DNA of 64,000 nt from an uncultured Mycoplasmatota bacterium (lineage in GTDB: Bacteria; Bacillota_I; Bacilli_A; RF39; UBA660), in assembly GCA_900542735.1 (NCBI GenBank), contig UQOS01000001.1, positions 50,865 through 114,864 on the forward strand, in the 5' to 3' direction. Position 1 is the stretch's first letter. Every line of letters begins with the position of its first letter. Shown here piece after piece: positions 6,598 to 53,021 of this stretch. The notes under the pieces were generated by a model that saw nothing but the letters and a program-made list of their open reading frames with translations, was not told the DNA's origin and did not search any database. A program made the position numbers and the translations under genes.

Positions 6598-6599
6598 TA

Positions 6600-15411: not shown

Positions 15412-15640
15412 ATGATAGAATTATTAGAAAAAATAAAAGAACAGAAAAAAGATAATTTTGTATCTTTGTTATCATATACTACATTTAAATATCTATTTAA
15501 AAATGAAGATACAAGAGAGTGGTTAGTAAATATCATTAAGGGTACATTTTAAAAAACTTATTAAATCTAGGTACTGTTTCATTGGAAGATATTTCAAAAA
15601 CTACTGACTTAGATATTGATACTTTAAATACCATATCTAA
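15412..15640 (+). pseudogene. Degenerate remnant of an Rpn-family nuclease/transposase gene (46-aa N-terminal piece, then a C-terminal-like piece in another frame)
   Basis: MIELLEKIKEQKKDNFVSLLSYTTFKYLFKNEDTREWLVNIIKGTF* resembles the Rpn N-terminus of gene 1406..2299 (ISDTIFKRLMMEH..YLGYILENI). The downstream out-of-frame KNLLNLGTVSLEDISKTTDLDIDTLNTISKES* resembles the Rpn C-terminal LS-EI-KL tail. Strong RBS AAAGGAG upstream. Confidence 0.45.
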
Positions 15641-15694
15641 AGAATCCTAAATAAAAATGACTTGAATATATGTTCAAGTCATTTTTAAATATCT

Positions 15695-17191
15695 TTATTC
15701 TCCTAAAGTCAAAGTAACTGTTGTACTACTTGGAACATTACTTCCACTTCTCATAGATTGTTTGATTACTTTAGTATTTTTTTCATTATTATCATCTAAA
15801 AACTTACAGTTAATATTTACTTTCTTGCAACTATTACTTGCTTCTTCCTTCGTCATACCAATTAAATTTGGAATTATTGTATTACCACCTTGAGAAATTA
15901 CTAGTATAACCGTTTCGTTATTTTTAATAATTTGATTTTCTTTATGAGAAGAAGAAATTAGTTTGCCTTTTTCGATACTATTACTATATTCATAATTAAT
16001 TTGATAGGCAATATCATTTCCATCAGCCCAAGTAATAAAATCATCAAGATTACTAAAACTTATCATATAAATTTGTCCCTTTGATAAAGTTACTTGAATA
16101 GTATCACCAACATTTATTAGATTTCCCTTGATATAATTACTACTAACTACTTTTCCTTTTTTTATCGTATCATCGTGTTCTTCTTTAAATTCTATTTTTA
16201 AACGATTATTAGTAGCCCAAGTATTAATTTCATTAGCATTCATTTTCGTTAAATCAGGAACTGTAATTTGATTTTTCTTAGAAACTGTTAAAATAATTTC
16301 TGTATTATCACTAGGACTAATAACTTCCCATTTTTTAACACTTTGTTTTAAGATGATATTTTCTTCTTTTTCTTCGCTATAAGCATATTCTATATCACAC
16401 TTTAAATGATTTCTTCCACAATAGACAATAGCATGAAAAGTATCAAGACCAACTAAATTATCCATAGTAATACTTTTTAATTCTTCTTCTTTACCTAGGG
16501 AAGATACTAAAGTAATAGGTTCATCTCTTTTAACTTCTTTTATTACATCTTGACTTATAATTGTATCTTTTGAAACTGTATCACTAAACTCAAAATTAAT
16601 TGTAACATTCGTTAAATGATTATCATCAATATACTTAATAACATCATCTAATTTCCAACCAACCATACTAGTAACAATAGTGTTAATAGAAGTATCAACT
16701 CCATCAGAAACAACGACCTTCATTTTCTTAAGTCCTTTGGTAGAAGTACCAGCCTTTACACTCTGACTGATAATCTTATACTGTAAAATAGTATCGCTAT
16801 TCTCAAAATCTTGTTCAATTAAAATATTTCTTTCATTTGCCCAAGTAACTACTTCTTTAATATCTTTATTTGTAAAATCTAATACTAAATCTTTTTTTGC
16901 ATTAACACTAGAAATTACTTGAAATAAACTGTAAAAAGTAAGAAGTAAGGAACCAATAATAATAAATATTTTAACTTTTTTATTTTGAGCAAACATACCA
17001 ACAATTACATAAAACACTGAAAAAATAGCTAACAATACCACACTGATAATACTAATAATCTGATTTAAAATATTACTACTAACTAATATCGTATAAATCA
17101 TATAAGAAATAGTAGAAACCAGTGATAAAGCTAAACAAAAATAAACAATAACTTGAAATACTTTTTCTTTTTTTTCTAATTTTTCTTCCAT
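15695..17191 (-). CDS. Membrane protein with N-terminal TM helices and several extracellular PASTA domains (no kinase or PBP domain)
   Basis: Repeated modules of about 65 aa of the form I/V-P-D/N-L-x-G/K-M...K-V-x-x-x...T-L-S-K-G (for example IPNLIGMTKEEASNSCKKVNINCKF...TVTLTLGE and VPDLTKMNANEINTWATNNRLKIEF...IQVTLSKGQ) typical of PASTA domains. Four hydrophobic helices at the N-terminus. Confidence 0.6.
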   Translation of the reverse strand: MEEKLEKKEKVFQVIVYFCLALSLVSTISYMIYTILVSSNILNQIISIISVVLLAIFSVFYVIVGMFAQNKKVKIFIIIGSLLLTFYSLFQVISSVNAKKDLVLDFTNKDIKEVVTWANERNILIEQDFENSDTILQYKIISQSVKAGTSTKGLKKMKVVVSDGVDTSINTIVTSMVGWKLDDVIKYIDDNHLTNVTINFEFSDTVSKDTIISQDVIKEVKRDEPITLVSSLGKEEELKSITMDNLVGLDTFHAIVYCGRNHLKCDIEYAYSEEKEENIILKQSVKKWEVISPSDNTEIILTVSKKNQITVPDLTKMNANEINTWATNNRLKIEFKEEHDDTIKKGKVVSSNYIKGNLINVGDTIQVTLSKGQIYMISFSNLDDFITWADGNDIAYQINYEYSNSIEKGKLISSSHKENQIIKNNETVILVISQGGNTIIPNLIGMTKEEASNSCKKVNINCKFLDDNNEKNTKVIKQSMRSGSNVPSSTTVTLTLGE

Positions 17192-17355
17192 AATGCACCT
17201 CTATTCTAACTTAATTATATAATAAGAAATAAATTATGAATACTAAAAAATCTAAAAAATAGGAACTAGTGTCAAATAGTTAGAAGGTAAAATCCTAAAT
17301 ATTTTCTATCTTTCTAATAGTGTTCATGATAAAATAAAAGAAAGAGAGTGATAAT

Positions 17356-18996
17356 ATGAAACAAATAAAAGAAACGAGTATTTTTTTATTAATGCTAATG
17401 GCAAATATTTTAATAGGAACAACTTTACTATTTTTTTGTAAAATAACGATTACGCCATTTCATTTACCTGGATTTATTTTATTAACTAGTCTATTTTATT
17501 TCTTTTTAAGAAGAAAAGTAACTAAGAAAGAAATTCTAACAACAATCATTTTATCTCTTTTAATAGTATCTCTATCTACTTTAATTTCTAGTTTTATGTT
17601 TGATAGATCAAGTGATGGAAATACTTATCATAAAGACGCAATTGGAGTATTAAAAGAAGGTTTTAATCCTGTATATGAATCTAGTGTTAAACAAATTAAA
17701 AAAAGACAAGATGACAGTAAAACACTAACAAACTATAGTATTTGGACAGACCATTATGCAAAAGCAAATTGGATTATTGCTGCTAATTTCTATAGTCTAA
17801 CAAACAATATTGAATCTGGAAAAGCTATGAATCTAATTAGTATGTATCTTGTGTTTGGATTTATTTTTACTTCATTATCTACTTGTATGACTACGAAAAA
17901 AGCTATGATACTTGCTCTTATTACTGTACTTAATCCTATTACAGCTTCGCAAGTTTTTACTTACTATAATGATCAATTAGTATGTATGTATCTTTTCTTA
18001 GCTATCTTATTTTTAATAAAACTAGATAAAAATATAAATGATAAAAACAGTTGGTTTTATTACTTTCTTACTTTTATTATTTTAGCGAATATGAAGTTTA
18101 ACGGATTAGGTTACTTATTAGTATTTAGTTTCTTCTTTGTTTGCAAGTATTTATTTAAGGCCTATAAAAACAAAAACTTTTTTCAAATATTTAAAAAATT
18201 ATGTATAATATTTATTCCTTTATTTATAACATCTCTTTTGATAGTAGGGTATCCTACCTATATAAAAAATACTATTGATCATAATAATCCATTCTTCCCA
18301 TTATACGATAAAAATGGTGAAGATATTATTACTGCTCAACAACCTAAAAAGTTTTTAAAAATGAATAATTTAGAAAAACTATTCTATGCAACATTCTCAA
18401 AAACAAACAATCTAAGAGAAAATGATAATACCGATTTAAAACTTCCATTTACGGTTTATAAAAGTGAACTAACACCAGCTATGAGTAACGATTTAAGAAT
18501 TAGTGGTTGGGGAATATTTTATAGTGGATTATTACTATGTAGTATCATTATCTTTATTAAGTATTATAAACAATATAAAAAAGAAACATCTATTTTGTAT
18601 ACCCTAATAATTACTATTTTCTTACTACTTATTATGAGTGAATCATGGTGGGCTAGATATACACCACACTTTTATTTATTTATAATTTTATCACTTTATA
18701 TTCTTTTTAAATATGAAAAGAAGAACTTAATATCTAATATTTATGTAGCTATTATTTTAATAAATACTTTAATACCATTTATGGGAAATAGTTATTATAC
18801 TTTAAAAAATAGTATTCAAATTCATAAAGAATTAAAAAGTTTATCAAATACCGAAATCAAACTAAATGTAAATGGTATGAATGGTATTATTTATAACTTA
18901 AAGGACTATCATGTTACTTATCATATTATGAAAGAAAATGGAAAAAAAGAATTATACTATCACTATTTAACATATCAAGGAGAAGAAGATGAATAA
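17356..18996 (+). CDS. Polytopic membrane protein, probable polysaccharide-modifying or glycosyltransferase-like (GT-C-like) protein
   Basis: 546 aa with more than 10 predicted TM helices. First gene of the polysaccharide locus. No soluble catalytic domain. Confidence 0.45.
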   Translation: MKQIKETSIFLLMLMANILIGTTLLFFCKITITPFHLPGFILLTSLFYFFLRRKVTKKEILTTIILSLLIVSLSTLISSFMFDRSSDGNTYHKDAIGVLKEGFNPVYESSVKQIKKRQDDSKTLTNYSIWTDHYAKANWIIAANFYSLTNNIESGKAMNLISMYLVFGFIFTSLSTCMTTKKAMILALITVLNPITASQVFTYYNDQLVCMYLFLAILFLIKLDKNINDKNSWFYYFLTFIILANMKFNGLGYLLVFSFFFVCKYLFKAYKNKNFFQIFKKLCIIFIPLFITSLLIVGYPTYIKNTIDHNNPFFPLYDKNGEDIITAQQPKKFLKMNNLEKLFYATFSKTNNLRENDNTDLKLPFTVYKSELTPAMSNDLRISGWGIFYSGLLLCSIIIFIKYYKQYKKETSILYTLIITIFLLLIMSESWWARYTPHFYLFIILSLYILFKYEKKNLISNIYVAIILINTLIPFMGNSYYTLKNSIQIHKELKSLSNTEIKLNVNGMNGIIYNLKDYHVTYHIMKENGKKELYYHYLTYQGEEDE

Positions 18997-20179
18997 AAAA
19001 CTAAATTTACTCATAATTATCTTTTTATTATTAGGACCTATTTTAGATGTAACTAGTTTTTTAGGATTACCATATAGTATTTTAGTAAGAAGTATCTTTT
19101 TAATTGGTATTATTTTATATTTATTATGGTATAAGAAAAGTTTAAAGTTGTTAATTCCTTTATTAGCTTTTGGTCTAGTTAATTTACTATATCAGTACCT
19201 CTATTTAAAAAGTGGTATGGTTACTTCTATTTCAGCTTGTTTAAAATTTTTATATTTACCAGTATCTATCTTATTTTTTAATGCTTGCCAGGTAGATACT
19301 AATAAAGATAAATTATTATTAACGGTTTTAATTACTTATTTAAGTATTTATTTATTATCTTATGTATTTAAAATAGGAGCAGATGCTTACTTACCAACAG
19401 ATGGCAAAAGCGGCTTTAAAGGTTTATTTTCATCAATTAATGAATTTAGTGCAATTATTGTGGGACTATTACCCATATCTTTAACCTATCTAAAGAAGAA
19501 AGAAAAATGGTTACTTTTTACTTTCGTTTTACTAGCTAGTATTGGTAGCAGTTTATTAATTGGAACTAAAGTTTTAATGGGTGGTATATTGTTTACTGTT
19601 TTCTATTTACTATATCAAGAAAGAGATAAGTTATTTTTTAAAAAATCTAAAAAAGGTAAAATCATGATAATAGGTATTTTGATTATTTCTATCATATGTG
19701 GCTCTATTTTATTTACGAAAACTAGAACCTATCAAAATATGGTAATCCAAAATAGTTTCTTTAAAGTAGATAAAATTTTATCGTTAGACTTTGTGAATAA
19801 AGTAATATATAATGATCGTTTAAGTTTTTTAAGTGATAATTATCAGTATTTTAAAAGTCAAAATATAATAAAAATATTATTTGGAATTGGATTAACTGAT
19901 AATAAAGTAAAAATGGTAGAAATAGATATTTTTGATATTATTTTTCGCTATGGCGTGATAGGTTTTATTACTTTTATAATTCCTATTATCTCATCTATTA
20001 AGTGGAAAAACATAAGAAAAGTTGATAAAATATCATTGTTACTATTTTTGATAATTTCTCTAACATCTGGTCATGTATTAATTTATCCAGCTGTTAGTAT
20101 TTATATAGCGTTCATTCAAAAAGAAGAAATTGAAGTAGGTGATAAATTTGAAAACAGGAATCGTAATTATTCATTATAA
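18989..20179 (+). CDS. Polytopic membrane protein, O-antigen ligase/polymerase (Wzy/WaaL)-like
   Basis: 396 aa with 10-12 TM helices and a larger loop near the C-terminal third, as in Wzy_C proteins. Overlaps the upstream and downstream genes in operon fashion. Confidence 0.45.
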   Translation: MNKKLNLLIIIFLLLGPILDVTSFLGLPYSILVRSIFLIGIILYLLWYKKSLKLLIPLLAFGLVNLLYQYLYLKSGMVTSISACLKFLYLPVSILFFNACQVDTNKDKLLLTVLITYLSIYLLSYVFKIGADAYLPTDGKSGFKGLFSSINEFSAIIVGLLPISLTYLKKKEKWLLFTFVLLASIGSSLLIGTKVLMGGILFTVFYLLYQERDKLFFKKSKKGKIMIIGILIISIICGSILFTKTRTYQNMVIQNSFFKVDKILSLDFVNKVIYNDRLSFLSDNYQYFKSQNIIKILFGIGLTDNKVKMVEIDIFDIIFRYGVIGFITFIIPIISSIKWKNIRKVDKISLLLFLIISLTSGHVLIYPAVSIYIAFIQKEEIEVGDKFENRNRNYSL

Positions 20180-21029
20180 TGATCTTGAATCATTGAAACA
20201 TTTAGTAGAAAATGTAGAAAACTATCATGTAATATCTAAAATTGTGATTGTAGATAATAATTCAAGAAAAGATGTAAAAAAGAGTCTTAGACTAATAACT
20301 GGTAAAAAAATAAAGTTAATTGAAAATAAAAAGAATTTTGGTTTTGCTAAAGCTATTAATATTGGATGTAAATACTTGATAAAAGAACTAGGTCCATGTA
20401 ATTTAATTATTTCTAATAGTGATGTTATTATTGATAAAGAAGAAGATTTAAAAGCTCTAATAAAAGAATTAAATAAAAAATCAGTAGGAGTAGTAGCACC
20501 AACTATTGTAGAAAATAAGCATTTAAATCGTGGTTGGAAAAATCCTAGTCCTTTCTTAGATAGTATGTTAAATTTGATTTATGTGCATCGTTTCTTTAGA
20601 AAAAAATATGTGTTTTATAAAGAGGAACATTATGATAGTAGAACTAGTTTAGTAGATGTTGTGAGTGGTTGTTTCTTTATAATGAAATCCAGAACATTAG
20701 AAAGAATTGGTTATTTAGATGAACATACTTTTCTTTATTATGAAGAAAATATTCTAGCAAAAAAGATTCATAATGAGAAATTATATATTGAAGTATGTAA
20801 TGATATTCTAATTATTCATAATCATTCGGTATCTATTGATAAAAATGTAAAAAAGATAAATAAGTTGAAACTTCAAAAGGAAAGTCAGTATTATTTTCAA
20901 ACAACTTATAATCATGCAAATCTATGGGAAAAAATGTTACTAAAGACAACTGCTTTTTGTAGTAGAATGATTTTAGCAGTAGTATATTTTTTGAAAGATT
21001 TGATAGGAGTAAAGAAAAAAGATAAATAG
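20139..21029 (+). CDS. Family 2 glycosyltransferase (rhamnosyltransferase-like)
   Basis: GIVIIHYNDLESL...IVIVDNNS and downstream NSDVII are GT2 (GT-A) DxD-type motifs. The track start is GTG at 20139; a TTG at 20148 has a better RBS. Confidence 0.7.
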   Translation: MINLKTGIVIIHYNDLESLKHLVENVENYHVISKIVIVDNNSRKDVKKSLRLITGKKIKLIENKKNFGFAKAINIGCKYLIKELGPCNLIISNSDVIIDKEEDLKALIKELNKKSVGVVAPTIVENKHLNRGWKNPSPFLDSMLNLIYVHRFFRKKYVFYKEEHYDSRTSLVDVVSGCFFIMKSRTLERIGYLDEHTFLYYEENILAKKIHNEKLYIEVCNDILIIHNHSVSIDKNVKKINKLKLQKESQYYFQTTYNHANLWEKMLLKTTAFCSRMILAVVYFLKDLIGVKKKDK

Positions 21030-21227
21030 GAAAATGGGTTATGCCCTTGTGGCATATGAGAAAAATATAAAAAGATATTTTTTGATAACTATTGTAGATG
21101 GAAAAGAGGTTAGTCTTATTTTTAAACTAACCTCTATATTTTTTATAGTATTTATAGTATTTAAAAAATAGTACTTTACTTTTAATATTCTAATTCATAA
21201 ATATAGAATTAAATTGGCAACTAATCA

Positions 21228-21275
21228 TTTGACAATTACACTGAAAAATGATATAATTTCAGTGTAATTGTCAAA
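21228..21275 (+). promoter_or_regulatory. Consensus sigma-A promoter (TTGACA-17-TATAAT) embedded in a perfect 19-bp inverted repeat; putative AbiEi autoregulatory operator
   Basis: TTTGACAATTACACTGAAA-aatgatataa-TTTCAGTGTAATTGTCAAA. The -35 is at 21229-21234 and the -10 at 21252-21257. The ATG of the AbiEi-like gene is at 21294. Confidence 0.7.
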
Positions 21276-21293
21276 GAAAGAAAAGGGATTAAT

Positions 21294-22181
21294 ATGAAAA
21301 AAGAGGAGAAAATCAATTATAAAATTGAAAGTGATGTTCTTAAAAATTATGTAGAAGCTATTAATTCAATAAAGGAACCCATGAGACAAATTAAGGATCA
21401 ACTTCATCAACTAACAATGCCAATGCAAGAACTAGATAAATCATTTAATGAATCTATGAAGCCAATCATTGAAGCAAGTAAAGCCGCTTCTAGGCCATTT
21501 AAATCAATTCAAAAAGAACTAAAAAGCATTAATACTATGTCTAATGTAATTAAGGAACTATCGATTAAATATCCAAACAACCAGTCAAAAATATTTATAG
21601 ATACTATAAAGCAAATAATGAATACCAATAATGGAATGCTTTCTACAAGAATGATAGAACCACTAAATATAAGCAGACAATATCTCTCAATTATGGAAAA
21701 TAATAATGAAATTGAAAAAGTTTCAAGAGGTATATATCTTTCACCAAGTGCTTTTGAGGATAGTTATTTTTCCTTCCAACAAAAATATAAAAAGGCTATT
21801 TTCTCACATATGAATGCCCTATATTTTTACGGTATGACTGAGGAATTTCCATATAACTATACAGTAACTGTTCCACAAAACTATCATGTTGATACAGTAA
21901 ATGAAAAATGTAATGTATTTTATGTTTCAGATGATATATATGAAATAGGTGTCGTTGAAGTTGAAACTCCAAGTGGAAATAAAGTTAGAGCTTATGACAA
22001 AGAAAGATGTATTTGCGATATCATAAGATCAAAAGGTAGAATGGATCCTGAACAAGTAAAAAAATCTATTAAACAATATATTCAAAGTAAAGATAAAAAT
22101 GTAGCAAAGCTATATGATTATGCAAAGAGAATGGGAATAAGTGAAAAAGTAATGGAAATGGTAGGCATATATTATGAGTAA
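21294..22181 (+). CDS. abiEi: AbiEi-family antitoxin/transcriptional regulator (type IV TA/abortive infection), copy 1, with an N-terminal extension of about 90 aa
   Basis: The C-terminal 200 aa align convincingly with the 62150..62776 protein (for example EIGVVEVETPSGNKVRAYDKERCICDIIRSKGRMDPEQVKKSIKQY versus ELGLIQIDTPMGNKVKAYDMERCICDIIRSKNRMDSEHVKHSIREY). It lies upstream of, and overlaps, an AbiEii-type nucleotidyltransferase gene. Confidence 0.75.
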   Translation: MKKEEKINYKIESDVLKNYVEAINSIKEPMRQIKDQLHQLTMPMQELDKSFNESMKPIIEASKAASRPFKSIQKELKSINTMSNVIKELSIKYPNNQSKIFIDTIKQIMNTNNGMLSTRMIEPLNISRQYLSIMENNNEIEKVSRGIYLSPSAFEDSYFSFQQKYKKAIFSHMNALYFYGMTEEFPYNYTVTVPQNYHVDTVNEKCNVFYVSDDIYEIGVVEVETPSGNKVRAYDKERCICDIIRSKGRMDPEQVKKSIKQYIQSKDKNVAKLYDYAKRMGISEKVMEMVGIYYE

Positions 22182-23016
22182 TTCTATCCAAGCAGTAAAG
22201 GATAAACTTAGAAATATTTCTAGAGAAAAAAATATAGATTTTAACTCTGTTATGAGATTTTATATGTATGATAGGTTTGTTGAACGCCTATCGAAAAGTA
22301 AATATAAAGATAATTTTATATTAAAAGGTGGCTTTTATTTGAGTAAATTATTCGGATTAGATAATAGAAGCACTATGGATATTGATACTGCAATAAGAAA
22401 AACAAATCTATCTTTAGAAAATGTTATTAAAATGATAACAGAAATTATTAATATAGATGTAGATGATAACGTAAAATTTGAAATTGAAAAAACAGAATCA
22501 ATTCGTGATGAAGATGAGTATGGTGGATTAAGAATTACGATAAAATTTACGTTAGAAAATATGAAAGATAGTTTTCACATTGATATAGCTACTGGTGATC
22601 CAATACATCCAGGACCAGATGATTATAAATATGAATCACTAATAGGAAATGATATATATAAGGTATGGTCATATAATTTGGAAACTATATTAGCTGAAAA
22701 AATAGAAACTATACTTAGCAAGTTAGAAGCAAGCAGTAGAATGAAAGATTACTATGATATTTATTTAATCCATAGGTTTAAATTTAATAAAATAAATAAA
22801 ACTAAATTTAGAGGCGCAGTAGAGAAAACTTTTGAAAAAAGAGAATTTAATGCAGATCTAATTGCAAGTTTAAATGTAGTTAAAGATAGTAAGATATTAA
22901 GAGATAAATGGGTAAGCTATTCTAGGAAAAATAGTTATGCTAGAAATTTGGAATTTGATGAAACTATAAAATGTTTAGAAGACTTTATAGAAATATTAAT
23001 ACCGGTAGAAGTATAA
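22174..23016 (+). CDS. abiEii: AbiEii/AbiGii-family nucleotidyltransferase toxin, copy 1
   Basis: LRNISREKNIDFNSVMRFYMYDRFVERLSKSKYKDNFILKGGFYLSKLFGLDNRSTMDIDTA is the AbiEii N-terminal nucleotidyltransferase signature (GG...DxD). The start ATGAGTAA overlaps the upstream stop. Confidence 0.8.
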   Translation: MSNSIQAVKDKLRNISREKNIDFNSVMRFYMYDRFVERLSKSKYKDNFILKGGFYLSKLFGLDNRSTMDIDTAIRKTNLSLENVIKMITEIINIDVDDNVKFEIEKTESIRDEDEYGGLRITIKFTLENMKDSFHIDIATGDPIHPGPDDYKYESLIGNDIYKVWSYNLETILAEKIETILSKLEASSRMKDYYDIYLIHRFKFNKINKTKFRGAVEKTFEKREFNADLIASLNVVKDSKILRDKWVSYSRKNSYARNLEFDETIKCLEDFIEILIPVEV

Positions 23017-23304
23017 GAGGTTTGAATGAGTATATAAGAATAACATATTGTACAACAAAAATAATTTCATATTTATCAGATTAAACACAATCGATAAGAA
23101 TGGGGCTTTTATAAATTTTAAAATAGAACAAGTTGAAAAAAAGATATTTTTTTTAGCACTTGAGTTGTATTAGTTTTGGTCGACAAATACATTAAACTTT
23201 TGTGCTTTTTTTCTAAATTAAAATGTGATGCTTTTTAATTATTTGATAATTCAAGACTTTTCGTTAGAAATTTGGTACAATTATCGCATAAGGTAGTGAT
23301 TGGG

Positions 23305-24093
23305 ATGAAAATTCTAAATAAAAAGTATTTTGAATCAATGAAAAAATATAGAGATGATAATAATTTACAGAATGAATTAACTGATGATGATTGTATTTGC
23401 TATGCAAATATGTTTTCAGTTTATTTTGAAATTACAGATAAAAAATATTCGTTTGATGAAATGTTTCAAACTTATGATTTTATAACAGATGTAATCGATG
23501 GATTAAGGCCTGATATAATGATTGAATTAAATGATAAGTATAGGGATATTTATAGATTATTAAGAAGATATTCTATAACAAAAAATTTAGATAAAGAAAC
23601 AAGAAAAAAATTAGCATTTTTAATATATCAAGCTAAATGCATAATTATTATGGATGAAGAAACTATGGAACCTACTTGGAATATGGGATTATTTGAAAAA
23701 GGAACAAATAATTTTCTTGAAGAATATGAATATGAATTAAAAGAATATCCAGAAACATACGAAATAAAAGAAACATTGTCTGACATTACGAGTGATGATT
23801 TTGGATTAACTGCTAATAATCCAATTGAATTAATATCTGTAGGAGCACAATATCAGTATTTAAATATATTATTAACTGATGATGGAAAAGATATTTTGTA
23901 TGAAAGAGTGGGAACAGTTACACATAGCGATGGTGAAACTATAATTGATGTATATAATATTTATAGCAAAAAAAAATTAGGAAAGAAAAAAATTGCTACT
24001 TTATATATTTCTGGATATGGATATGAAAATACTGTAATTGCTCCAAAAGGCTTTAGATTTATGACAGATGAAGAATTTAAAAATAGACATTAA
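23305..24093 (+). CDS. Hypothetical cytoplasmic protein, acidic, no recognisable domain; downstream of AbiE pair 1
   Basis: ORF of 262 aa from ATG 23305. No TM segment and no known motif. Distinct, even lower-GC composition. Confidence 0.45.
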   Translation: MKILNKKYFESMKKYRDDNNLQNELTDDDCICYANMFSVYFEITDKKYSFDEMFQTYDFITDVIDGLRPDIMIELNDKYRDIYRLLRRYSITKNLDKETRKKLAFLIYQAKCIIIMDEETMEPTWNMGLFEKGTNNFLEEYEYELKEYPETYEIKETLSDITSDDFGLTANNPIELISVGAQYQYLNILLTDDGKDILYERVGTVTHSDGETIIDVYNIYSKKKLGKKKIATLYISGYGYENTVIAPKGFRFMTDEEFKNRH

Positions 24094-24328
24094 ATGCCAA
24101 TTAACTGCTTATTATATAGCTAAAATGAATGAGTGTGATATAGATAAACCTAAAAATCTTGCTAAAAAGTGTAACAGTTGAATAAAAAATAATATAAAAT
24201 CAGATAAAAATGTTAAAAAAGCGCCATATTTCTTGAGATATGTCGTTTTTTAGTTTATACTTAATTATAAGAGATAGTAATATCGCTAAGAATAGAAAAG
24301 GGTAAAAGACTAAGGAAAGAGGTACACA

Positions 24329-25210
24329 ATGAAAGGAATTATATTAGCAGGAGGTTCAGGAACTAGACTTTATCCAATAACAGAAGGAATTAGTAAACAG
24401 TTAATACCAATTTATGATAAACCGATGATTTATTATCCTTTATCAACATTGATGTTAGCAGGAATTAAAGATATTTTATTAATTACTACAGAGCAAGATC
24501 AAGCTGGATTTAAAAGATTATTTGGAACAGGAAAGCAATTTGGATTAAATATTGATTATGTGATTCAACCATCACCTGATGGACTAGCACAAGCTTTTAC
24601 TTTAGGAAAAGATTTTATTGGAAATGATACTTGTGCAATGATACTTGGAGATAATATTTTTTATGGTAATGATTTAGTTAAAAAATTAAGCACAGCTAGA
24701 AAAAATGCTGAGGACGGATATGCTACTATTTTTGGTTATCAAGTAAAAGATCCTGAAAGATTTGGAATTATGGAAATTGATGAGAATAAAAAAGTAATTT
24801 CTGTAGAAGAAAAACCGCAAAAGCCAAAAAGTGATTTTGCGATAACTGGATTATATTTTTATGATAATAGAGTTGTAGATAAAGCATTTAAGGTGGAAAA
24901 ATCTGCTCGAGGAGAGTATGAAATAACAGATTTAAATAGAATGTACTTAGAGGAAAACAAATTGAAAGCTGAACTTTTAGGTGGAGGATATGCTTGGTTT
25001 GATACAGGACTTACAGATAGTTTATTAGATGCAAGTAATACTATTAAAACTCTTCAAAACATAAGAGGCTCTATTATTAGTTGTCCAGAACAAATTGCTT
25101 ATAAAAATGGTTGGTTATCAGATAGCCAATTATTAGAGCGTGCTGAATTAATGAAGAAAAATGAATATGGAAAATATTTAATGAAAACATATGAAAAAGG
25201 TAGAAAATAG
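24329..25210 (+). CDS. rfbA: Glucose-1-phosphate thymidylyltransferase
   Basis: [18 protein letters not shown]...[17 protein letters not shown] is the canonical RmlA N-terminus. 293 aa. Confidence 0.9.
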
Positions 25211-25233
25211 TTTTATATACTAGGGATAATAAT

Positions 25234-26370
25234 ATGAAAAAAAGTGAACTATATACAATAATTATAACGAATTATAATAATAGTAAATATCTTAAAAATG
25301 CAATAAATTCAGTCCTAAATCAAAAATATAATAATATTGAATTAATAATTACTGATGATAATTCAACAGAGTTTAATCTAGAAAATATAAAAAAATATAT
25401 TGAAAAGAAAAAGAAAAAAAATATTAAAAGTGTAAAATATGTAATTAATGATAAAAATATTGGTACTATTAAAACTTTAAATAAAGCTATAAAATTATCA
25501 AGTGGTGAATATATACAATTTTTTGCTTCTGATGATGAATTGTATGATGAAAATGTAATAGAAAATTTTGTTTCTAGTTTTAAAAAAAGCAATAATAATA
25601 TAGTATCATCTCAATTTAGATTATGTGATAATAATATGAAATTTATCAATAATTTTAATAATTCCAGAAAATGTTTAAGGTTAAATAAAAATTTAAAAAA
25701 GCAATATTATGAAGTATGTAAAAATAATATTTATGGTTCAGGTGCTACAAGTTATAGAAGAATAATATTTGAAAAATATGGTTTAATTGATACGAAATAT
25801 CTTTTATTAGAGGATTGGCCATTGTGGCTACAGTTATTAAATAAAGGCGAGAAAATATTCTATGAAAATTTTAATGGCTTGAATCATAGAGATGGTGGAA
25901 TTAGCAAAACTAAAGAAATGAGTAAGATAACCAAAGTGTTTAATGAAGAAATAATCAATACATTTATTTACGAAATATTACCTAATATAATAAATTTTAA
26001 TGTTTATGAGCAGTTTAAAATTTTAAAATCTTTTAATTACCACATCGATAATTATGTACCAGAAAATGAAAGAGTTAATTATATAAATAAATTAAACAGA
26101 ATAATTAATAGCAATATGAAATTAAAATTGCTTTGGGGGATTGATCATTACTTTCCTAATATAATTGAAAAGATAATAATTCTATTTAAATATAATATAA
26201 TCGTTCCCATATCCTTTTTAGTTGCATATATTTTTATCTTTATACTAATTAATATTATTGATATTAATAAAGATTTATTATTGATCATATTCCTAGGAAT
26301 TTACTTTTTTCTTTATGTAACTATGAATATAATTAGTAATTTCATTAAAATAAAAAAAGGCGGGGTTTAG
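25234..26370 (+). CDS. Family 2 glycosyltransferase with a C-terminal membrane-anchor region (paralog of the next gene)
   Basis: TIIITNYNNSKYLKNAINSVLNQKYNNIELIITDDNS is a GT2 motif. Shared HRDGGIS motif and hydrophobic C-terminus. Confidence 0.7.
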   Translation: MKKSELYTIIITNYNNSKYLKNAINSVLNQKYNNIELIITDDNSTEFNLENIKKYIEKKKKKNIKSVKYVINDKNIGTIKTLNKAIKLSSGEYIQFFASDDELYDENVIENFVSSFKKSNNNIVSSQFRLCDNNMKFINNFNNSRKCLRLNKNLKKQYYEVCKNNIYGSGATSYRRIIFEKYGLIDTKYLLLEDWPLWLQLLNKGEKIFYENFNGLNHRDGGISKTKEMSKITKVFNEEIINTFIYEILPNIINFNVYEQFKILKSFNYHIDNYVPENERVNYINKLNRIINSNMKLKLLWGIDHYFPNIIEKIIILFKYNIIVPISFLVAYIFIFILINIIDINKDLLLIIFLGIYFFLYVTMNIISNFIKIKKGGV

Positions 26371-27711
26371 ATGGAAAAATTCTCATTAATTATTACTCAT
26401 TATAATCAAATGAAATATATAAAAGAGGCAATATTATCAGTTCTTAATCAAAATTACAAAAATATTGAAATAATTGTTTCAGATGATCATTCTAAAGAGT
26501 TCGATAAAGATAAAATTGAAGAAATATTTAAAAAATATAATAAAAAAAAGTTTGAATATAAAATATATCAAGGTAAAGCTAATTATGGGACGGTAAAGAG
26601 TTTAAACAATGCGTTATCGCTTGCTACTGGTGAATATATTCTGTTTTTTGCTGCAGATGATAAATTAGCTAATGAATCTGTTATTAGCAATTTCGTTAAT
26701 GAGTTTAAAGATAAAAATAAGAATATTGTTACTTCACAATGTGGATTATATGATCATGATCTAAAGGTAAAATATGGTTGTTATGTTAATGCAAAAAATG
26801 CATTAGATTTAAATAAAAAAAATAGTATGGCCGTTTATGAAAAAACATGTGAAGGTTGTTTTTATGGAGCTGGTGGAACAGCATACAGAAAAAATATTTT
26901 TGAAAAATATGGAAAATTCAATGAAAAATATAAATATGTAGAAGATTGGTCATATTGGTTGTATGTAACAAGAAGTGGAGAAATGATATATTATGCAGAT
27001 TTTGATTCACTATGTCACAGAGATGGTGGTATAAGTCACAGTGTTTTTGCTCCTGAAACTGTGCCACCACACATAAAACAATATTATAGAGATATTTTAA
27101 ATATATATATTGATCAGATTTTGCCATATGTAAATAATTTTACAACAAAAGAAAAGTATAGAATTATGAGACAATTTAATGAAACAATTTTATATTATTC
27201 ATATTTTGTTCCGGAATTAAGTTCCTATTTAAAAGACTTTGATAACGCAAGAATAAATGATAAAAAGCTTAAATATTATTGGAAAATACAGACATTAAAA
27301 AAGATATTAAAAAAATCTTTTAATTTAAATTTACTTAATAAACTTAGAGTGTTATTTATCTATAACAAGCCAGTAATAGTATCAATGTGTTATTGGTTAT
27401 CAATTTGTTACTTTTATATTAATAAAATTGAAAATTTAAACAATAATTTGTTATTATTAATATATACTTGTTTATATGTATTAATATATGTTTTAGCTTA
27501 TTTTATTGACAAAGTATCATACAGGTTAAAAACAAAGCATTTATATAAAATACTGGTATGGATTTTATTAAATATAGTGTCAATAAATGCTTTTAAGATA
27601 AGTAATGATAATGTATTTCTACTATTAATTTTAAACTATTTCATTACACATATATTTTTATATTTATTATCTGGAGTCTTAAAATTTATTAGACTTTATA
27701 GAAGAAGATAG
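26371..27711 (+). CDS. Family 2 glycosyltransferase with a C-terminal polytopic membrane region (paralog of the previous gene)
   Basis: SLIITHYNQMKYIKEAILSVLNQNYKNIEIIVSDDHS, CHRDGGISH, and a C-terminal hydrophobic domain of about 120 aa. Confidence 0.7.
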   Translation: MEKFSLIITHYNQMKYIKEAILSVLNQNYKNIEIIVSDDHSKEFDKDKIEEIFKKYNKKKFEYKIYQGKANYGTVKSLNNALSLATGEYILFFAADDKLANESVISNFVNEFKDKNKNIVTSQCGLYDHDLKVKYGCYVNAKNALDLNKKNSMAVYEKTCEGCFYGAGGTAYRKNIFEKYGKFNEKYKYVEDWSYWLYVTRSGEMIYYADFDSLCHRDGGISHSVFAPETVPPHIKQYYRDILNIYIDQILPYVNNFTTKEKYRIMRQFNETILYYSYFVPELSSYLKDFDNARINDKKLKYYWKIQTLKKILKKSFNLNLLNKLRVLFIYNKPVIVSMCYWLSICYFYINKIENLNNNLLLLIYTCLYVLIYVLAYFIDKVSYRLKTKHLYKILVWILLNIVSINAFKISNDNVFLLLILNYFITHIFLYLLSGVLKFIRLYRRR

Positions 27712-27793
27712 CATATTGTCGATAGAAAACTGCTAAATAATTGCATTTTTCTATCAAATAATGTAGAATATTATGTTATATAGGGAGGTTTTT

Positions 27794-28534
27794 ATGGAAG
27801 AAAATAAAACATTTATTCACCCAACTGCGTTAGTTTATCCAAATGTTGAATTTGGAGATAATGTATATGTTGGGCCATATTGTATTGTTGGGGAGCCAAC
27901 ATTTGGCTATTATAAAAATGCAGAAAATCATGAGTTTAAAAAAACAATAATTGGATCAAATGCAATTTTAAGAGCAAACACAATAATTTATGAGGGTTGT
28001 CAAATTGGAGAAAATTTTCAAACAGGACATCATGTTACAATAAGAGAAGATAGTATTATTGGAAAGAATTGTTCCGTTGGTACATTAGGAGATATACAGG
28101 GAAAAGTAAAAATAGGAGACTTTGTCCGTTTACATTCAAATGTACATATTGGTCAATTTACGGAAATAGGCAATTATGTATGGATGTTTCCATATTCTAT
28201 AACTACAAATGATTTATATCCTCCAATGGATAGATTAACTGGCTGTAAAATAGGCGATTATTCATTAATAACAACAGGTGCTATTCTTTTGCCAGGTGTT
28301 GTTATTGGCGAAAATTGTATGGTTGCAGCAGGGGCTGTTGTAAGTAAAAATGTTGAAGATGGAAAAGTTGTAATGGGTGTTCCAGCTAGGGAAAGAGGAT
28401 ACATAGAAGATATTTTAGATGAAAATGGAAATCATATTTACCCTTGGCCTCAATACCTTGAAGAAGATAGAGGTTATCCTTGGCAAAATGACAAACAAAA
28501 AACAAAAGTAATGGGAAGTTATAAAGAAAAATAG
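27794..28534 (+). CDS. Left-handed beta-helix (hexapeptide) sugar N-acyltransferase, FdtC/QdtC-like
   Basis: Repetitive hexapeptide pattern ([LIV]-G-x-x-x-x-I), for example VGPYCIVGEPTFG..IGSNAILRANTIIYEGCQIGENFQTGHHVTIRE. Located with fdtA/fdtB-like genes. RBS AGGGAGG upstream of the ATG at 27794. Confidence 0.6.
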   Translation: MEENKTFIHPTALVYPNVEFGDNVYVGPYCIVGEPTFGYYKNAENHEFKKTIIGSNAILRANTIIYEGCQIGENFQTGHHVTIREDSIIGKNCSVGTLGDIQGKVKIGDFVRLHSNVHIGQFTEIGNYVWMFPYSITTNDLYPPMDRLTGCKIGDYSLITTGAILLPGVVIGENCMVAAGAVVSKNVEDGKVVMGVPARERGYIEDILDENGNHIYPWPQYLEEDRGYPWQNDKQKTKVMGSYKEK

Positions 28535-28543
28535 GTGATAGAA

Positions 28544-28975
28544 ATGTATAATAGTGGCTTGTTTAAATTTAGAAAAATTAGTTCACCAACTAATCCTAAT
28601 TTAGGAAATTTAACTCCAATTGAAATACCAGGTGATATTCCTTTTGAAGTAAAAAGAATGTATTATATTTATGGTGTTGGACAATCTGAAGTAAGGGGAA
28701 ATCATTCTCATAAAAAATTACATCAAGTATTAATTTGCCTAAATGGCAGTATAGATGTAAGATTAGAAAATTTTTTTGGAGAAGAAAAATATACATTAAA
28801 TGATCCATCTGTTGGATTATATGTTGGACCAGATAACTGGAGAGAAATGTCAAATTTCAGTGATAATAGTGTATTACTAGTCTTAGCATCAGCACCATAT
28901 GATGAAAACGATTACATAAGGGACTATGATGAATTCGTTTCATTTAATCAAAAAAAATATGGGGGTAAAAAATAA
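28544..28975 (+). CDS. dTDP-4-dehydro-6-deoxyglucose 3,4-ketoisomerase (FdtA/WxcM C-terminal domain-like cupin)
   Basis: About 140-aa cupin with [19 protein letters not shown], matching the RG.HAHKK.EQ FdtA motif. Sits between an acyltransferase and a DegT aminotransferase. Confidence 0.7.
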
Positions 28976-30126
28976 TGGTCGAATCAAAAAGAAATATTCC
29001 ATTTGCAAATTTAAAACCAGTTAATGGAATGATAAGAGAAGATTTAATAGCATGCTTTGCTGATACATTGGACAAAGAGTGGTTTATTGGTGGAGAAAAA
29101 GTAAAAGAGTTTGAAGATAAGTTTGCAAAATATTGTAATGCAAAATATTGCGTTGGTGTTGGTAATGGTCTTGAATCAATAGAATTAGCCTTATTAGGGT
29201 ATGGCATTGGATCAGGTGATGAAGTTATTGTTTGTTCTCATACTTTTATAGCAAGTGCATTGGCAATTTCAAAAACTGGTGCTACCCCAATTTTTGTTGA
29301 ACCAGATTTAGATTATTGTTTAATTGATCCAACAAAAATTGAAGAAAAGATTACGCCAAACACTAAAGCTATAATTGCGGTTCAATTATATGGACAATGC
29401 TGTGATATGGATTATATTAATAATTTAGCTAAAAAATATAATTTAAAAGTAATAGAAGATGCTGCACAAGCACATGGAGCAAAATATAAAGATAGAATTG
29501 TAGGATCTTTGGCAGATGTAGCAGCGTTTAGCTTTTATCCAGGAAAAAATTTAGGGGCATTAGGTGACGCAGGAGCAATAGTAACAAATGATGAAGTATT
29601 AGCAAATAAGGTAAGAGAAATTGCTAATTATGGAGCATTTGTTAGATATCATCATAATGTTAAAGGGACAAATTCAAGATTAGATGAAATGCAGGCAGGA
29701 TTTTTATCATTAAAATTAGATCATCTTGATGAAGTAAATAACTACAGAAGAATGGTAGCACAAAAATATAGTGATGGTATAAAAAATGAAAGTATAATAC
29801 TTCCTAAAGTTGCACCAACTAATGAACACATTTGGCATTTATATACAATTAGGACTGAGGAAAGAGACTTATTAATTAAATATTTAAATGAAAATGGTAT
29901 TGGAACTAATGTACATTACCCAATACCTATTCATAAACAACAAGCATATTCAGAATATAATGATTTATATTTACCAAACGCAGAACAAATTGCATCAACA
30001 ACACTTAGCATTCCTATGTACTATGGAATGGAAGATGAAGATATATCTTATGTTATTGAAAAACTAAACAACTATGATATGGAAAAGGAAAAAGAAAAAT
30101 CAAAAGTGTTGATTAACAAAATATAA
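28975..30126 (+). CDS. DegT/DnrJ/EryC1-family PLP sugar aminotransferase (FdtB-like, dTDP-3-keto-6-deoxyhexose 3-aminotransferase)
   Basis: [44 protein letters not shown] contains the catalytic Lys region (SFYPGKNLG) of the DegT family. Confidence 0.75.
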
Positions 30127-30133
30127 AAAATGA

Positions 30134-30166
30134 AACCTTGTTCTCATTATGATACAAGGTTTTTTA
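30134..30166. terminator. Rho-independent terminator after the fdt genes
   Basis: AAACCTTG-(14 nt)-CAAGGTTTTTT hairpin plus a T-tract. Confidence 0.55.
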
Positions 30167-49979: not shown

Positions 49980-50016
49980 GAATAATATGCTAAACTATCA
50001 TCAAGAAGGTGTAATT

Positions 50017-53015: not shown

Positions 53016-53021
53016 GAATAA

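Follow-up and report, generated by a model that had tools for sequence, protein, structure and literature searches.

Two predicted AbiE toxin–antitoxin modules at strain-variable sites of an uncultured gut Bacilli genome, one with an N-terminally extended antitoxin

The window, i.e., the whole 64,000-nucleotide stretch of DNA analysed here, stems from the genome (26% GC) of an uncultured gut Bacilli bacterium. It carries two operons of two genes each, with the antitoxin gene located 5′ of the toxin gene in both, that resemble the AbiE/MenAT systems, which are among the most widespread toxin–antitoxin and abortive-infection modules. The genes of both copies, and the part of the first antitoxin gene that sets it apart, are:

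21294–22181, forward strand: abiEi-1, encoding a 295-aa antitoxin and predicted autorepressor that consists of an extension, a winged-helix-turn-helix and a COG5340 C-terminal domain
21294–21548, forward strand: N-terminal extension of AbiEi-1 (residues 1–85), missing from copy 2
22174–23016, forward strand: abiEii-1, encoding a predicted 280-aa DUF1814 nucleotidyltransferase toxin
62150–62776, forward strand: abiEi-2, encoding a predicted 208-aa antitoxin of standard length
62769–63605, forward strand: abiEii-2, encoding a predicted 278-aa DUF1814 nucleotidyltransferase toxin

All four proteins matched the corresponding PADLOC models (E-values for copy 1 and copy 2, respectively, of 7.6e-64 and 1.1e-60 for AbiEi, and of 6.4e-95 and 3.4e-94 for AbiEii). 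In Pfam, both toxins matched PF08843 (AbiEii), with E-values of 5e-41 and 4.3e-36, respectively, and AbiEi_4 scored the antitoxins of copies 1 and 2 at 24.0 and 23.6 bits, i.e., slightly below its 25-bit cut-off. The Streptococcus agalactiae AbiEi structures 6Y8Q and 9HLO_A were matched by AbiEi-1 (E = 2.5e-38, over residues 107–290) and AbiEi-2 (E = 1.6e-35), and the AbiEii structure 9HLO_B by the toxins of copy 1 (E = 1.5e-53) and copy 2 (E = 2e-56). A preliminary description of this DNA had put forward the pairs at 21294–23016 and 62150–63605 as homologous, and alignment, by which a possible absence of true homology was checked, bore this out far above chance, with 47% identity between the antitoxins (E = 6e-68) and 53% between the toxins (E = 4e-110). 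Since residues 86–295 of AbiEi-1 pair with residues 1–208 of AbiEi-2, the extra N-terminal segment of copy 1, previously estimated at about 90 aa and indeed missing from copy 2, measures 85 aa. The two copies are distant relatives that were acquired independently, and not the outcome of a duplication within the genome.

Inactivating mutations, also sought in the toxin genes, are present in neither, and both proteins display the DUF1814 motifs I–IV (i.e., hGG, RxxxDxD, K...R and KDxxD). When compared with the residues that are functional in S. agalactiae AbiEii (as listed from Dy et al. 2014 and the 2026 preprint), AbiEii-1 aligns G52-G53, R65, T67, D69, D71, K176, K183, D192 and D195, and AbiEii-2 retains R63, T65, D67, D69, the K of AEK, the R and the KDFYD-type aspartates. 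The latter protein aligns with 9HLO_B from residue 1, placing the abiEii-2 start at 62769 and not at 62754. All residues essential for toxicity in S. agalactiae are thereby kept in both toxins, except for R180, which is a K in AbiEii-1, and the phospho-acceptor region reads R65-S66-T67-M-D69-I-D71 in copy 1 and R63-T64-T65-M-D67-I-D69 in copy 2. The gene order and the overlap of antitoxin and toxin genes are shared by both pairs as first described, but the overlap spans 8 nt (ATGAGTAA at 22174–22181 in copy 1, and ATGAATAG at 62769–62776 in copy 2) instead of a 4-nt ATGA; this offset of –8 was seen in 50 homologous loci and is the modal abiEi/abiEii spacing among homologues. Judged by these comparisons, both loci are intact AbiE (COG5340 antitoxin/DUF1814 nucleotidyltransferase) toxin–antitoxin and abortive-infection modules.

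A mechanism can be proposed by homology to the systems of S. agalactiae and Mycobacterium tuberculosis. AbiEii would add pyrimidine nucleotides to tRNA 3′ ends, causing translation to stop, and the C-terminal domain of AbiEi would bind AbiEii with a loop entering its active site, and would drive autophosphorylation of a conserved Thr (T67 and T65 in copies 1 and 2, respectively) that switches the toxin off. The winged helix of AbiEi would in turn bind an inverted repeat around the –35 and –10 elements and repress its own operon. In S. agalactiae, the AbiEi loop D85-E86-I87 contacts R63 and R117 of AbiEii (2026 preprint). AbiEi-1 has E183-E184-F185 at this position, i.e., a conservative change, whereas AbiEi-2 has S-I-K-A-P opposite the S. 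agalactiae T-D-E-I-P; since its I-K-A lacks an acidic residue, the contacts to R63 and R117 cannot be the same.

Like the modules described here, the S. agalactiae system is a bicistronic operon with overlapping genes (by 4 nt, vs. 8 nt here), pairs a winged-helix-turn-helix and COG5340 antitoxin with a DUF1814 nucleotidyltransferase toxin (its GG, R63, T65, D67/D69, K173 and D192 having equivalents in the window), and has its promoter embedded in inverted repeats; in contrast to its AbiEi, that of copy 1 is longer by the 85 N-terminal residues in which the heptad repeats lie. The MenA–MenT systems of M. tuberculosis share the toxin superfamily, the antitoxin family and a proposed phosphorylation-based neutralisation (i.e., MenA3-induced MenT3 phosphorylation), and the MenT proteins, likewise DUF1814 toxins, act by modifying the acceptor stems of tRNAs. 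Nevertheless, their target tRNAs differ, they are only ca. 16–17% identical to S. agalactiae AbiEii (2026 preprint), and no coiled-coil extension of the antitoxin was reported in the literature surveyed. The "type IV" label initially attached to both pairs is that of Pfam and of Dy et al. 2014, and was based on toxin and antitoxin not forming a complex. It is now contested, as the 9HLO complex crystal structure and SEC data contradict non-interaction and AbiE has been reclassified as type VII (Arrowsmith et al. bioRxiv 2026), so that the modules belong to a family whose mechanism is currently under revision.

Directly upstream of each operon, a putative promoter/operator was identified:

21228–21275, forward strand: putative abiE-1 promoter/operator, a perfect inverted repeat with 19-nt arms (TTTGACAATTACACTGAAA-N10-TTTCAGTGTAATTGTCAAA)
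62092–62137, forward strand: putative abiE-2 promoter/operator, an inverted repeat (TTGACAAAACTAATGA-N14-TCATTAGATTTGTCAA)

Both repeats surround a –35 TTGACA, a 17-nt spacer and a –10 TATAAT (located at 21229–21257 in copy 1). The outer TTGACAA is common to the two operators, and their inner arms differ. Within 20900–24400, the abiE-1 promoter is the sole 12/12 promoter match, and no consensus match to a terminator was found; a hairpin noticed by eye at ca. 21104–21150 is not put forward as one. The arms of the abiE-1 repeat are 100% complementary, and the repeat is kept among the relatives of AbiEi-1 that share its extension (i.e., the extended clade, see below), down to orthologues of ca. 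50% identity, with paired changes in both arms (e.g., ACCACACTCAAA/TTTGAGTGTGGT and ATTGCACTGAAA/TTTCAGTGCAAT). The abiE-2 repeat is 94% complementary and is kept in copy-2-type loci. By analogy with the characterised systems, AbiEi would bind to and repress at these inverted repeats (i.e., negative autoregulation). The arms (16–19 nt) and gaps (10–14 nt) differ from those of S. agalactiae (23 nt with a gap of 3 nt, or an 11-nt core with a gap of 27 nt). The operator spans 46–48 bp and is essentially alike for extended and short AbiEi proteins, with half-site centres 29 bp apart in abiE-1, and the aligned upstream regions of the extended clade revealed no additional conserved operator elements 5′ of the –35 element.

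Copy 1 is part of a cassette with the following surroundings:

21031–24088, no strand assigned: strain-variable copy 1 cassette of 3,058 bp, with the abiE-1 promoter, abiEi-1, abiEii-1 and orf262
23305–24093, forward strand: orf262, encoding a 262-aa acidic protein
24089–24181, forward strand: 3′ remnant of glmS, frameshifted near its end and located between orf262 and rfbA

As in the preliminary description, copy 1 sits in a glycan cluster, with a GT2 gene upstream and, downstream, genes for an RfbA-type NTP_transferase, two GT2 proteins, a hexapeptide acetyltransferase, FdtA, DegT and an ABC-2 exporter. That it was inserted into a variable glycan locus, as also proposed there, is supported by comparison with related strains. 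One locus (L003) is 99.1% identical to window positions 15577–21030 (its GT2 protein being identical to that of the window), then carries 2.6 kb of other DNA, and resumes at window position 24089. This other segment holds a 197-aa ORF and glmS instead of abiE and orf262. Residues 562–589 of its GlmS moreover match window positions 24089–24172 (82% identity, E = 1.6e-9 via tblastn), i.e., the window keeps the last ca. 28 codons of glmS, of which the final ones (KSVTVE*) are in another frame. The cassette flanks are alike in further loci (L001, L002, L004–L008 and L101–L111), and a related lineage with differing downstream glycan genes has retained copy 1 (95% identity). By these comparisons, the cassette took the place of the 197-aa gene and of the bulk of glmS where the conserved part of a surface-glycan locus meets its variable part, costing the strain its local glmS copy.

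Copy 2, in turn, lies at the right-hand end of the window, 3′ of recG:

61786–61925, forward strand: promoter-like site and structured sRNA-like element, 3′ of recG
61889–64000, no strand assigned: left end of an integrative mobilizable element with abiE-2 and a Ppl-like ATPase, extending past the window end
63740–64000, forward strand: 5′ end of a Ppl-like PHP/ATPase defence gene, cut by the window end

The DNA from CCCCTGAAGAG onward is identical behind at least six unrelated upstream contexts, and the window is 100% identical to four other loci (L089, L090, L092 and L093) up to position 63739. Full-length loci continue with a 1039-aa ATPase (that of L092 matching PADLOC Ppl at 6e-26), a tyrosine integrase and a Mob_Pre relaxase; the Phage_integrase and Mob_Pre genes are present in L089–L093 and L122, and in the case of the window would lie past base 64000. 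With an integrase, a relaxase and the same left end at differing sites, this is an integrative mobilizable element. Copy 2 is its first cargo pair, lying some 260 bp in from the left end and next to the Ppl-like defence gene, and the element is integrated at a hot spot 3′ of recG. At least five different occupants part from the window at 61899–61900 in strains with identical RecG, and this integration site serves at least five different elements. The junction of several of these elements coincides with the end of the sRNA-like element (CCCCCTGAA, up to 61897), which has a fold z-score of –4.73, yields no Rfam family at E-values up to 10 (with MicX as the best candidate at 20 bits vs. a 75-bit threshold) and no tRNA or tmRNA match.

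Both AbiE copies are accessory and occupy strain-variable sites, and they provide two clean cases of how hot spots of recombination come to hold defence or addiction modules in gut Bacilli, here an uncultured and poorly studied group. We infer that their biological role is phage defence or stabilisation of variable DNA. It could well be, at somewhat less than even chances, that they act by the same mechanism chiefly in addiction or stabilisation, guarding both the mobilizable element and the variable glycan cassette against loss. The terminal position of copy 2 on an integrase/relaxase element, and the position of copy 1 at the border of a recombining glycan locus (together with its persistence in the lineage with other downstream glycan genes), would fit such a role. 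According to Dy et al. 2014 and PMC11062541, AbiE also stabilises plasmids and an ICE. Mycoplasmas, which are a related low-GC lineage, likewise have AbiE pairs (e.g., TA160/161 of M. mycoides subsp. capri), with paralogous copies and orphan antitoxins within one genome, and AbiE pairs with signs of horizontal transfer reside in the variable vpma surface-antigen locus of M. agalactiae and M. bovis (PMC8562856), even though that locus encodes phase-variable lipoproteins instead of a glycan cluster and the antitoxin is of standard length (198 aa). The neighbouring defence genes (Ppl-like and bSEFIR), however, fit the logic of a defence island, and AbiE of Lactococcus lactis confers abortive infection (2026 preprint). 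The same preprint found no protection by S. agalactiae AbiE against 32 coliphages, so that a defence role is not guaranteed either.

AbiE as a system is already known, and the annotation of the two pairs was mostly correct; the new part is modest and concerns the extended antitoxin variant. The extension of AbiEi-1 comprises a conserved head (residues 1 to ca. 40, with the pattern K-I-x-Y-K-I-D-x-x-V-L-K-N-Y-V-E-A-I) and four 14-residue units (residues 27–82) in a continuous heptad register that runs as a single register from residue ca. 13 through the extension, with Pro at residues 29, 43, 57 and 68. It recurs across more than 120 protein clusters and in the genomes of about 44 species of gut Bacilli. 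Throughout this clade, a conserved head of ca. 40 aa is followed by two to five 14-residue (i.e., two-heptad) units in a/d register, and the number of residues ahead of the core domain is 72, 86, 100 or 114, i.e., varies in 14-residue steps. In a tree built from the core domain alone, all 45 extended proteins form one clade, and the extension is the hallmark of this monophyletic AbiEi clade with a single origin. Copy 1 belongs to an AbiEi subfamily that is so far undescribed, large (roughly 1000 members) and very abundant in gut Bacilli. Since no DNA-level tandem repeats were found at 21200–21700, the 14-residue units are old and diverged, and not the product of recent slippage.

The extended frame is open in 45/45 homologues, the most distant of which share about 50% identity; where the extension has indels, they comprise whole codons, mostly 14. 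With dN/dS values of 0.21 for the head and 0.41–0.45 for the linker (vs. 0.12 for the core), the extension is translated and under purifying selection. Moreover, most of 18 aligned clade members have promoter, operator and an RBS 10–21 nt 5′ of the extended ATG, and nothing further upstream is conserved among them.

An exhaustive phmmer search of 1.84 billion representatives for homologues of the extension elsewhere returned only fragments of the same proteins and, at E-values no better than 1e-9, a few helical proteins that are rich in repeats and punctuated by Pro. Among 24 extensions, Pfam yielded sub-threshold coiled-coil families, with DUF948 in 10/24 (best 3.9e-10), which we read as compositional or repeat likeness; PHROGs yielded no match to the extension. 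For the head and repeats of AbiEi-1 (residues 1–68), no PADLOC, Pfam, NCBIfam or PHROG model scored above threshold. The PADLOC model PDLC02263 (244 positions) matches both antitoxins (1.2e-24 for copy 1 and 3.8e-26 for copy 2) and reaches ca. 35–45 positions beyond the start of the short form on the N-terminal side, so defence databases do include AbiEi proteins of somewhat greater length, but it covers only residues 69–284 of AbiEi-1 and leaves the conserved head and 14-residue repeats outside. The head (residues 6–40) was also considered as a ribbon-helix-helix, since its pattern has the look of a strand-helix start, as in CopG-like strand-helix-helix patterns. This candidate was set aside as unsupported, as no such Pfam family (24 extensions, E ≤ 10) and no PDB profile was matched, and a single heptad register from residue ca. 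13 runs counter to it.

The dominant hydrophobic period of the AbiEi-1 extension is 3.5 residues, with a power of 168.6 vs. 10.2 in shuffled sequences (reached by 0/2000 shuffles). The periodicity exceeds that of 99% of shuffles in 37/49 homologous extensions, grows with repeat number, and was found neither in the AbiEi-1 core domain nor in copy 2. An AlphaFold2 model of AbiEi-1 placed long helices at residues 13–64 and 71–92, albeit with a low pLDDT of 59.9 from a shallow alignment. Given the unbroken heptad register, the extension most likely forms a coiled coil. The function we favour, and infer, is tethered dimerisation of the repressor-antitoxin. The coiled coil would hold two (or more) AbiEi molecules together, with a stalk length set in 14-residue steps, such that a pre-formed dimer could reach both operator half-sites and possibly engage two toxins. 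Counting against such a tether, a Pro every 14 residues would be out of the ordinary in a canonical two-stranded coiled coil, and a series of short amphipathic helices with kinks would yield equal periodicity. Furthermore, since operator geometry is alike for extended and short AbiEi proteins, the extension is not required to explain the operator architecture, and S. agalactiae AbiEi reportedly acts as a monomer with cooperative binding (Hampton et al. 2018). For the extended clade, toxicity, neutralisation, DNA binding and phage defence would each be carried over by extrapolation. With these provisos, we consider it quite probable that the window holds intact AbiE modules with the mechanism of their homologues, in mobile contexts and with a coiled-coil-tethered AbiEi-1. 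The clade offers a natural experiment on what the addition of antitoxin oligomerisation, operator bridging or signal sensing, on a putative stalk of quantised length, brings to such a module.

Instead of a tether, the extension might be a sensor or partner-binding module for a phage protein, protease adaptor or host factor, such that the antitoxin is lost or disabled upon infection or under stress, with repeat variation reflecting an arms race. The linker is the fastest-evolving part relative to the rest of AbiEi, repeat number differs among close relatives, the strong conservation of the head motif suggests a specific contact, and extended abiE loci adjoin other defence genes (e.g., bSEFIR at 5e-86). 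Nevertheless, dN/dS stays below 1 throughout, no conserved partner gene lies beside the module, and the extension lacks a homologue in other protein families that would hint at a ligand, making this reading a rather unlikely one. Bolder still, and improbable in our view, is that the extended clade constitutes a distinct functional class in which a length-tunable coiled-coil stalk and head form an oligomeric scaffold or sensor, with the head recognising a signal from phage or host and an arms race selecting how many units there are. If true, this would be an AbiE with a built-in trigger-sensing domain, absent from all characterised AbiE and MenAT systems.

The preliminary description had also pointed to an acidic ORF 3′ of copy 1, which is indeed present, orf262 encoding 48 D+E vs. 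35 K+R. It has no match in Pfam, NCBIfam, PADLOC or PHROG, and its AlphaFold2 model (pLDDT of 91.9) no significant fold match. The idea that it adds a third member to the abiE-1 system, e.g., a nucleotidyltransferase modulator, has very little to commend it, given that orf262 is internally deleted in one related locus (L001) and that its diverged homologues occur among conjugation and replication genes and away from abiE. By these comparisons orf262 is mobile-element cargo and no partner of abiE; it travels with abiE-1 in the lineage of the window only. Finally, that the extension is an annotation artefact, with a real start at Met82 (21537) yielding an AbiEi of ca. 214 aa behind an untranslated leader (21294–21536), is barely credible, for even though Met82 is roughly level with the start of short AbiEi proteins, no Shine-Dalgarno sequence precedes it, promoter, operator and RBS lie directly 5′ of 21294 as they do in the short copy 2, and the extension has the open frame, codon-multiple indels and dN/dS values (0.21–0.45) given above.

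In other genomes, and speaking against our main reading, about a quarter of the extended abiEi genes occur without an intact abiEii, suggesting that the antitoxin may have a role of its own.

All four ORFs claimed in the preliminary description were present in the window (GC content of 26.1%) at 21294-22181 (abiEi-1), 22174-23016 (abiEii-1), 62150-62776 (abiEi-2) and 62769-63605 (abiEii-2), and their designation as two AbiEi/AbiEii pairs was borne out by Pfam, PADLOC and solved-structure matches. The toxins matched Pfam PF08843 (DUF1814/AbiEii) at 5e-41 (copy 1) and 4.3e-36 (copy 2), and the antitoxins scored 24.0 and 23.6 bits against Pfam AbiEi_4, slightly below its 25-bit cut-off. PADLOC models yielded 7.6e-64 (copy 1) and 1.1e-60 (copy 2) for AbiEi, and 6.4e-95 and 3.4e-94 for AbiEii. 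Moreover, the S. agalactiae structures matched the antitoxins at 2.5e-38 and 1.6e-35 (AbiEi; 6Y8Q, 9HLO_A) and the toxins at 1.5e-53 and 2e-56 (AbiEii; 9HLO_B). By all sequence-level criteria, both pairs are AbiE family members. The proposed protein similarity between them amounted to 47% identity for AbiEi (E = 6e-68) and 53% for AbiEii (E = 4e-110). The start-stop overlap, described as a 4-nt ATGA, is instead 8 nt long in copy 1 (ATGAGTAA) as well as in copy 2 (ATGAATAG), the modal arrangement among 50 homologous loci; the abiEii-2 start was placed at 62769 because alignment with the S. agalactiae protein begins at residue 1. The earlier observation is confirmed and its interpretation supported. 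Added to it are the edges of the copy 1 cassette and glmS replacement, the placement of copy 2 on a mobile element, both operators, and a description of the extension as a clade-defining heptad-repeat stalk.

Apart from the extended antitoxin clade, the AbiE pairs found here are ordinary. AbiEi-1 (295 aa) is N-terminally extended as described: AbiEi-2 residues 1-208 align with its residues 86-295. The extension recurs in >120 protein clusters that match over their whole length (80-98% identity; protein lengths of 277-310 aa), and genome bins of ~44 species (labelled uncultured Bacilli, Coprobacillus sp. CAG:605, Mollicutes/Tenericutes and similar) hold orthologues 49-84% identical that cover residues 1-295. 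In a tree of the core domain only, 45/45 extended proteins formed one clade with no short form within. Three lines of evidence show that the extension is translated: promoter, operator and ribosome-binding site lie 10-21 nt 5' of the extended ATG in the majority of aligned clade members, no member has a closed frame, and dN/dS values are 0.21 (head) and 0.41 (linker), compared with 0.12 in the core.

The conserved head (consensus K-I-x-Y/F-K-I-D-x-x-V/I-L-K-N-Y-V-E-A-I-N-S-I-x-x-P-M-x-x-I-K) is followed by 14-residue units, most starting near a proline, so that 72, 86, 100 (window) or 114 residues precede the core. Hydrophobicity in the extension has a dominant period of exactly 3.5 residues (power of 168.6 vs. 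10.2 in shuffles, with 0/2000 reaching 168.6). This period was also found in 37/49 homologues, with power increasing with repeat number, and was absent from the AbiEi core and copy 2. Length steps of two heptads preserve the register, as a coiled-coil stalk requires, and the units are old, as no DNA-level tandem repeats were detectable in the extension. Sequence, Pfam, PDB-profile and PHROGs searches detected no homologue of the extension outside the clade, and a literature search returned no AbiEi described with a coiled coil or N-terminal extension. The extension is thus characterised as a clade-defining heptad-repeat stalk, and the extended antitoxin clade is a new variant within the known AbiE family.

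Both operons have a consensus TTGACA-17-TATAAT promoter inside an inverted repeat, with arms as follows:

21228-21246 and 21257-21275: copy 1 arms, perfect, 19 nt each
62092-62107 and 62122-62137: copy 2 arms, 16 nt each

The copy 1 promoter was the only 12/12 match in 20900-24400. In orthologues down to ~50% protein identity, paired changes in both arms keep the palindrome, a pattern characteristic of operators bound by protein, and binding is predicted. This arrangement matches that of S. agalactiae AbiEi, for which autoregulation was shown (Dy et al. 2014). An outer TTGACAA is common to both operators, the inner arm sequences differ, and no conserved elements were seen upstream of the -35 in the aligned extended-clade loci.

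As for the role of the extension, we tentatively favour a tethered dimer, in which the coiled coil would join two AbiEi molecules and the stalk would provide the reach to place two winged helices onto half-sites with centres 29 bp apart. S. agalactiae AbiEi binds cooperatively as a monomer, and tethered binding would stand in for such purely cooperative binding. Against this model, short AbiEi proteins have the same operator geometry, the regular proline spacing is atypical for coiled coils, and the structure model of AbiEi-1 is not reliable. The main rival, somewhat less likely in our estimate, is that the extension is a sensor or partner-binding module.

Toxicity of S. agalactiae AbiEii requires G49/G50, R63, D67, D69, K173, R180 and D192 (Dy et al. 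2014), and T65 is its phospho-acceptor (Arrowsmith et al., bioRxiv 2026). HMMER alignments with S. agalactiae AbiEii, read against these residues, revealed in neither toxin the inactivating motif mutations that the preliminary description named as refuting: AbiEii-1 keeps G52-G53, R65, T67, D69, D71, K176, K183 and D192/D195, with K183 where S. agalactiae has R180, and AbiEii-2 has exact equivalents, including the arginine at the R180 position. The S. agalactiae AbiEi loop D85-E86-I87 is necessary for stable binding and full antitoxicity (Arrowsmith et al.). Its equivalent is E183-E184-F185 in AbiEi-1 (T-E-E-F-P with flanks; T-D-E-I-P in S. agalactiae) and I-K-A in AbiEi-2 (S-I-K-A-P, residues ~92-96), the latter offering no acidic residue for pairing with the conserved toxin arginines. 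Contact details thus probably differ between copies, which would insulate them from each other. The "type IV" label of AbiE comes from Pfam and Dy et al. 2014. Arrowsmith et al. moved AbiE to type VII, reporting that AbiEi and AbiEii form a stable heterodimer (9HLO), that the antitoxin induces autophosphorylation of the toxin at T65, and that tRNA modification is pyrimidine-specific. As judged by alignment, the residues required for the type VII mechanism occur in both window pairs, save for the differing AbiEi-2 loop.

Copy 1 lies in a glycan locus, where the comparison with related strains involved these features:

20139-21029: GT2 gene
24089-24181: glmS 3' remnant, last ~28 codons, frameshifted before the stop (vs. 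glmS at 6352-8130 of related locus L003)
24266-30470: RfbA, two GT2, hexapeptide acetyltransferase, FdtA and DegT aminotransferase genes

The exact GT2 protein occurs on 16 public contigs, with abiE in 7/8 contexts listed, L003 being the exception. L003 and the window share 99.1% identity as far as base 21030, which directly follows the GT2 stop codon; L003 then continues with a 197-aa ORF and full glmS, and resumes the window sequence from 24089. Since window 24089-24172 encodes GlmS residues 562-589 (82% identity, E = 1.6e-9), and the window has no other glmS, the 3,058-bp cassette (21031-24088; abiE-1 and orf262) took the place of the 197-aa gene and of most of glmS, in line with the suggested insertion into a variable surface-polysaccharide locus. 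The L003 197-aa protein (5465-6058) had no PADLOC or PHROGs match; its residues C-H-H-I-D-E-D-K resemble a His-Me/HNH-type motif. Neither L001 nor L003 has the 6.2-kb segment 24266-30470; in both, the ABC exporter comes next. The segment is a second swappable glycan cassette directly after the abiE cassette and looks like a dTDP-amino-sugar (dTDP-3-acetamido-dideoxyhexose) pathway.

In a related lineage, a 95%-identical AbiEi in the same position is followed by other glycan genes; in another species, an 81%-identical orthologue lacks glycan genes and adjoins a bSEFIR defence gene (L097 7774-9165, 3' of abiE; PADLOC 5.1e-86). These differing neighbours make the abiE-glycan association lineage-specific; it stems from a junction prone to recombination, not from a functional link. 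A published precedent comes from mycoplasmas, in which abiE lies within vpma, a variable locus for surface proteins (PMC8562856).

The acidic 262-aa protein noted after copy 1 (orf262, 23305-24093) is present, without a family match in Pfam, NCBIfam, PADLOC or PHROGs. Its homologues form ~30 unannotated clusters; identical copies occur in the abiE-orf262-rfbA arrangement only. The L001 orf262 carries an internal deletion. Diverged homologues have no abiE alongside; their neighbours belong to conjugation (TrbL_2, PrgI, VirB4/TraG-like) or are replication/IS genes. We read orf262 as mobile-element cargo, which suggests that the whole copy 1 cassette derived from such an element.

Copy 2 is carried on a mobile element, next to these features:

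61786-61925, + strand: sRNA-like element, promoter-like site and two hairpins, 3' of recG (window; related loci L115-L122)
63740-64000 (L092 7590-10709): Ppl-like PHP/ATPase, 3' of copy 2 (PADLOC Ppl 6e-26)

Across the collection, 117 indexed blocks contain a protein identical to AbiEi-2. Among the contexts listed, at least six unrelated genes lie upstream, and the shared DNA always starts at CCCCTGAAGAG (window 61889). In full-length loci, copy 2 is followed by a 1039-aa ATPase (within whose gene the window ends), a tyrosine integrase and a Mob_Pre relaxase. In strains with identical RecG, at least five different inserts occupy this point instead (divergence at 61899-61900), their junction being the exact end of the sRNA-like element (CCCCCTGAA), and each insert supplies its own terminator hairpin. 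The element has a fold z of -4.73 and no Rfam family or tRNA match, and is absent from L115. Other defence genes adjoin abiE both here (Ppl-like) and in the other-species copy 1 orthologue (bSEFIR).

Orphan antitoxins are common: among ~50 extended abiEi genes that could be assessed, ~14 have no intact abiEii. Locus L052 (1606-3045) has an extended abiEi (250 aa) directly followed by a short one (207 aa), each with its own inverted-repeat operator, and no abiEii after. The extended module of L016 is preceded (~136-266) by a GGAAATAAATTTCC... leader typical of the copy-2-type mobile element, and a copy-2-type TGACAAATCTAATGA...TCATTAGATTTGTCA repeat precedes extended abiE in L042 and L044 (upstream of 4850/8001). 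Exchange of extended and short modules within one element family is suggested.

The window further contains:

43563-45677 (stretch 43563-51643): thioester-domain/SpaA-fold surface protein
46244-47260: YhcG-type PDDEXK nuclease
47443-50961: second glycan gene group (GT4, Alg14-like protein, GT28-C/GtrA fusion, GT2)
53009-53599, + strand: full-length OLE (ornate, large, extremophilic) RNA (Rfam RF01071, 417.9 bits, E = 2.4e-119)

From the RF01071 match, this uncultured gut Bacilli lineage has OLE RNA. The GT4 of the second glycan group also matches "GT4-conflict".
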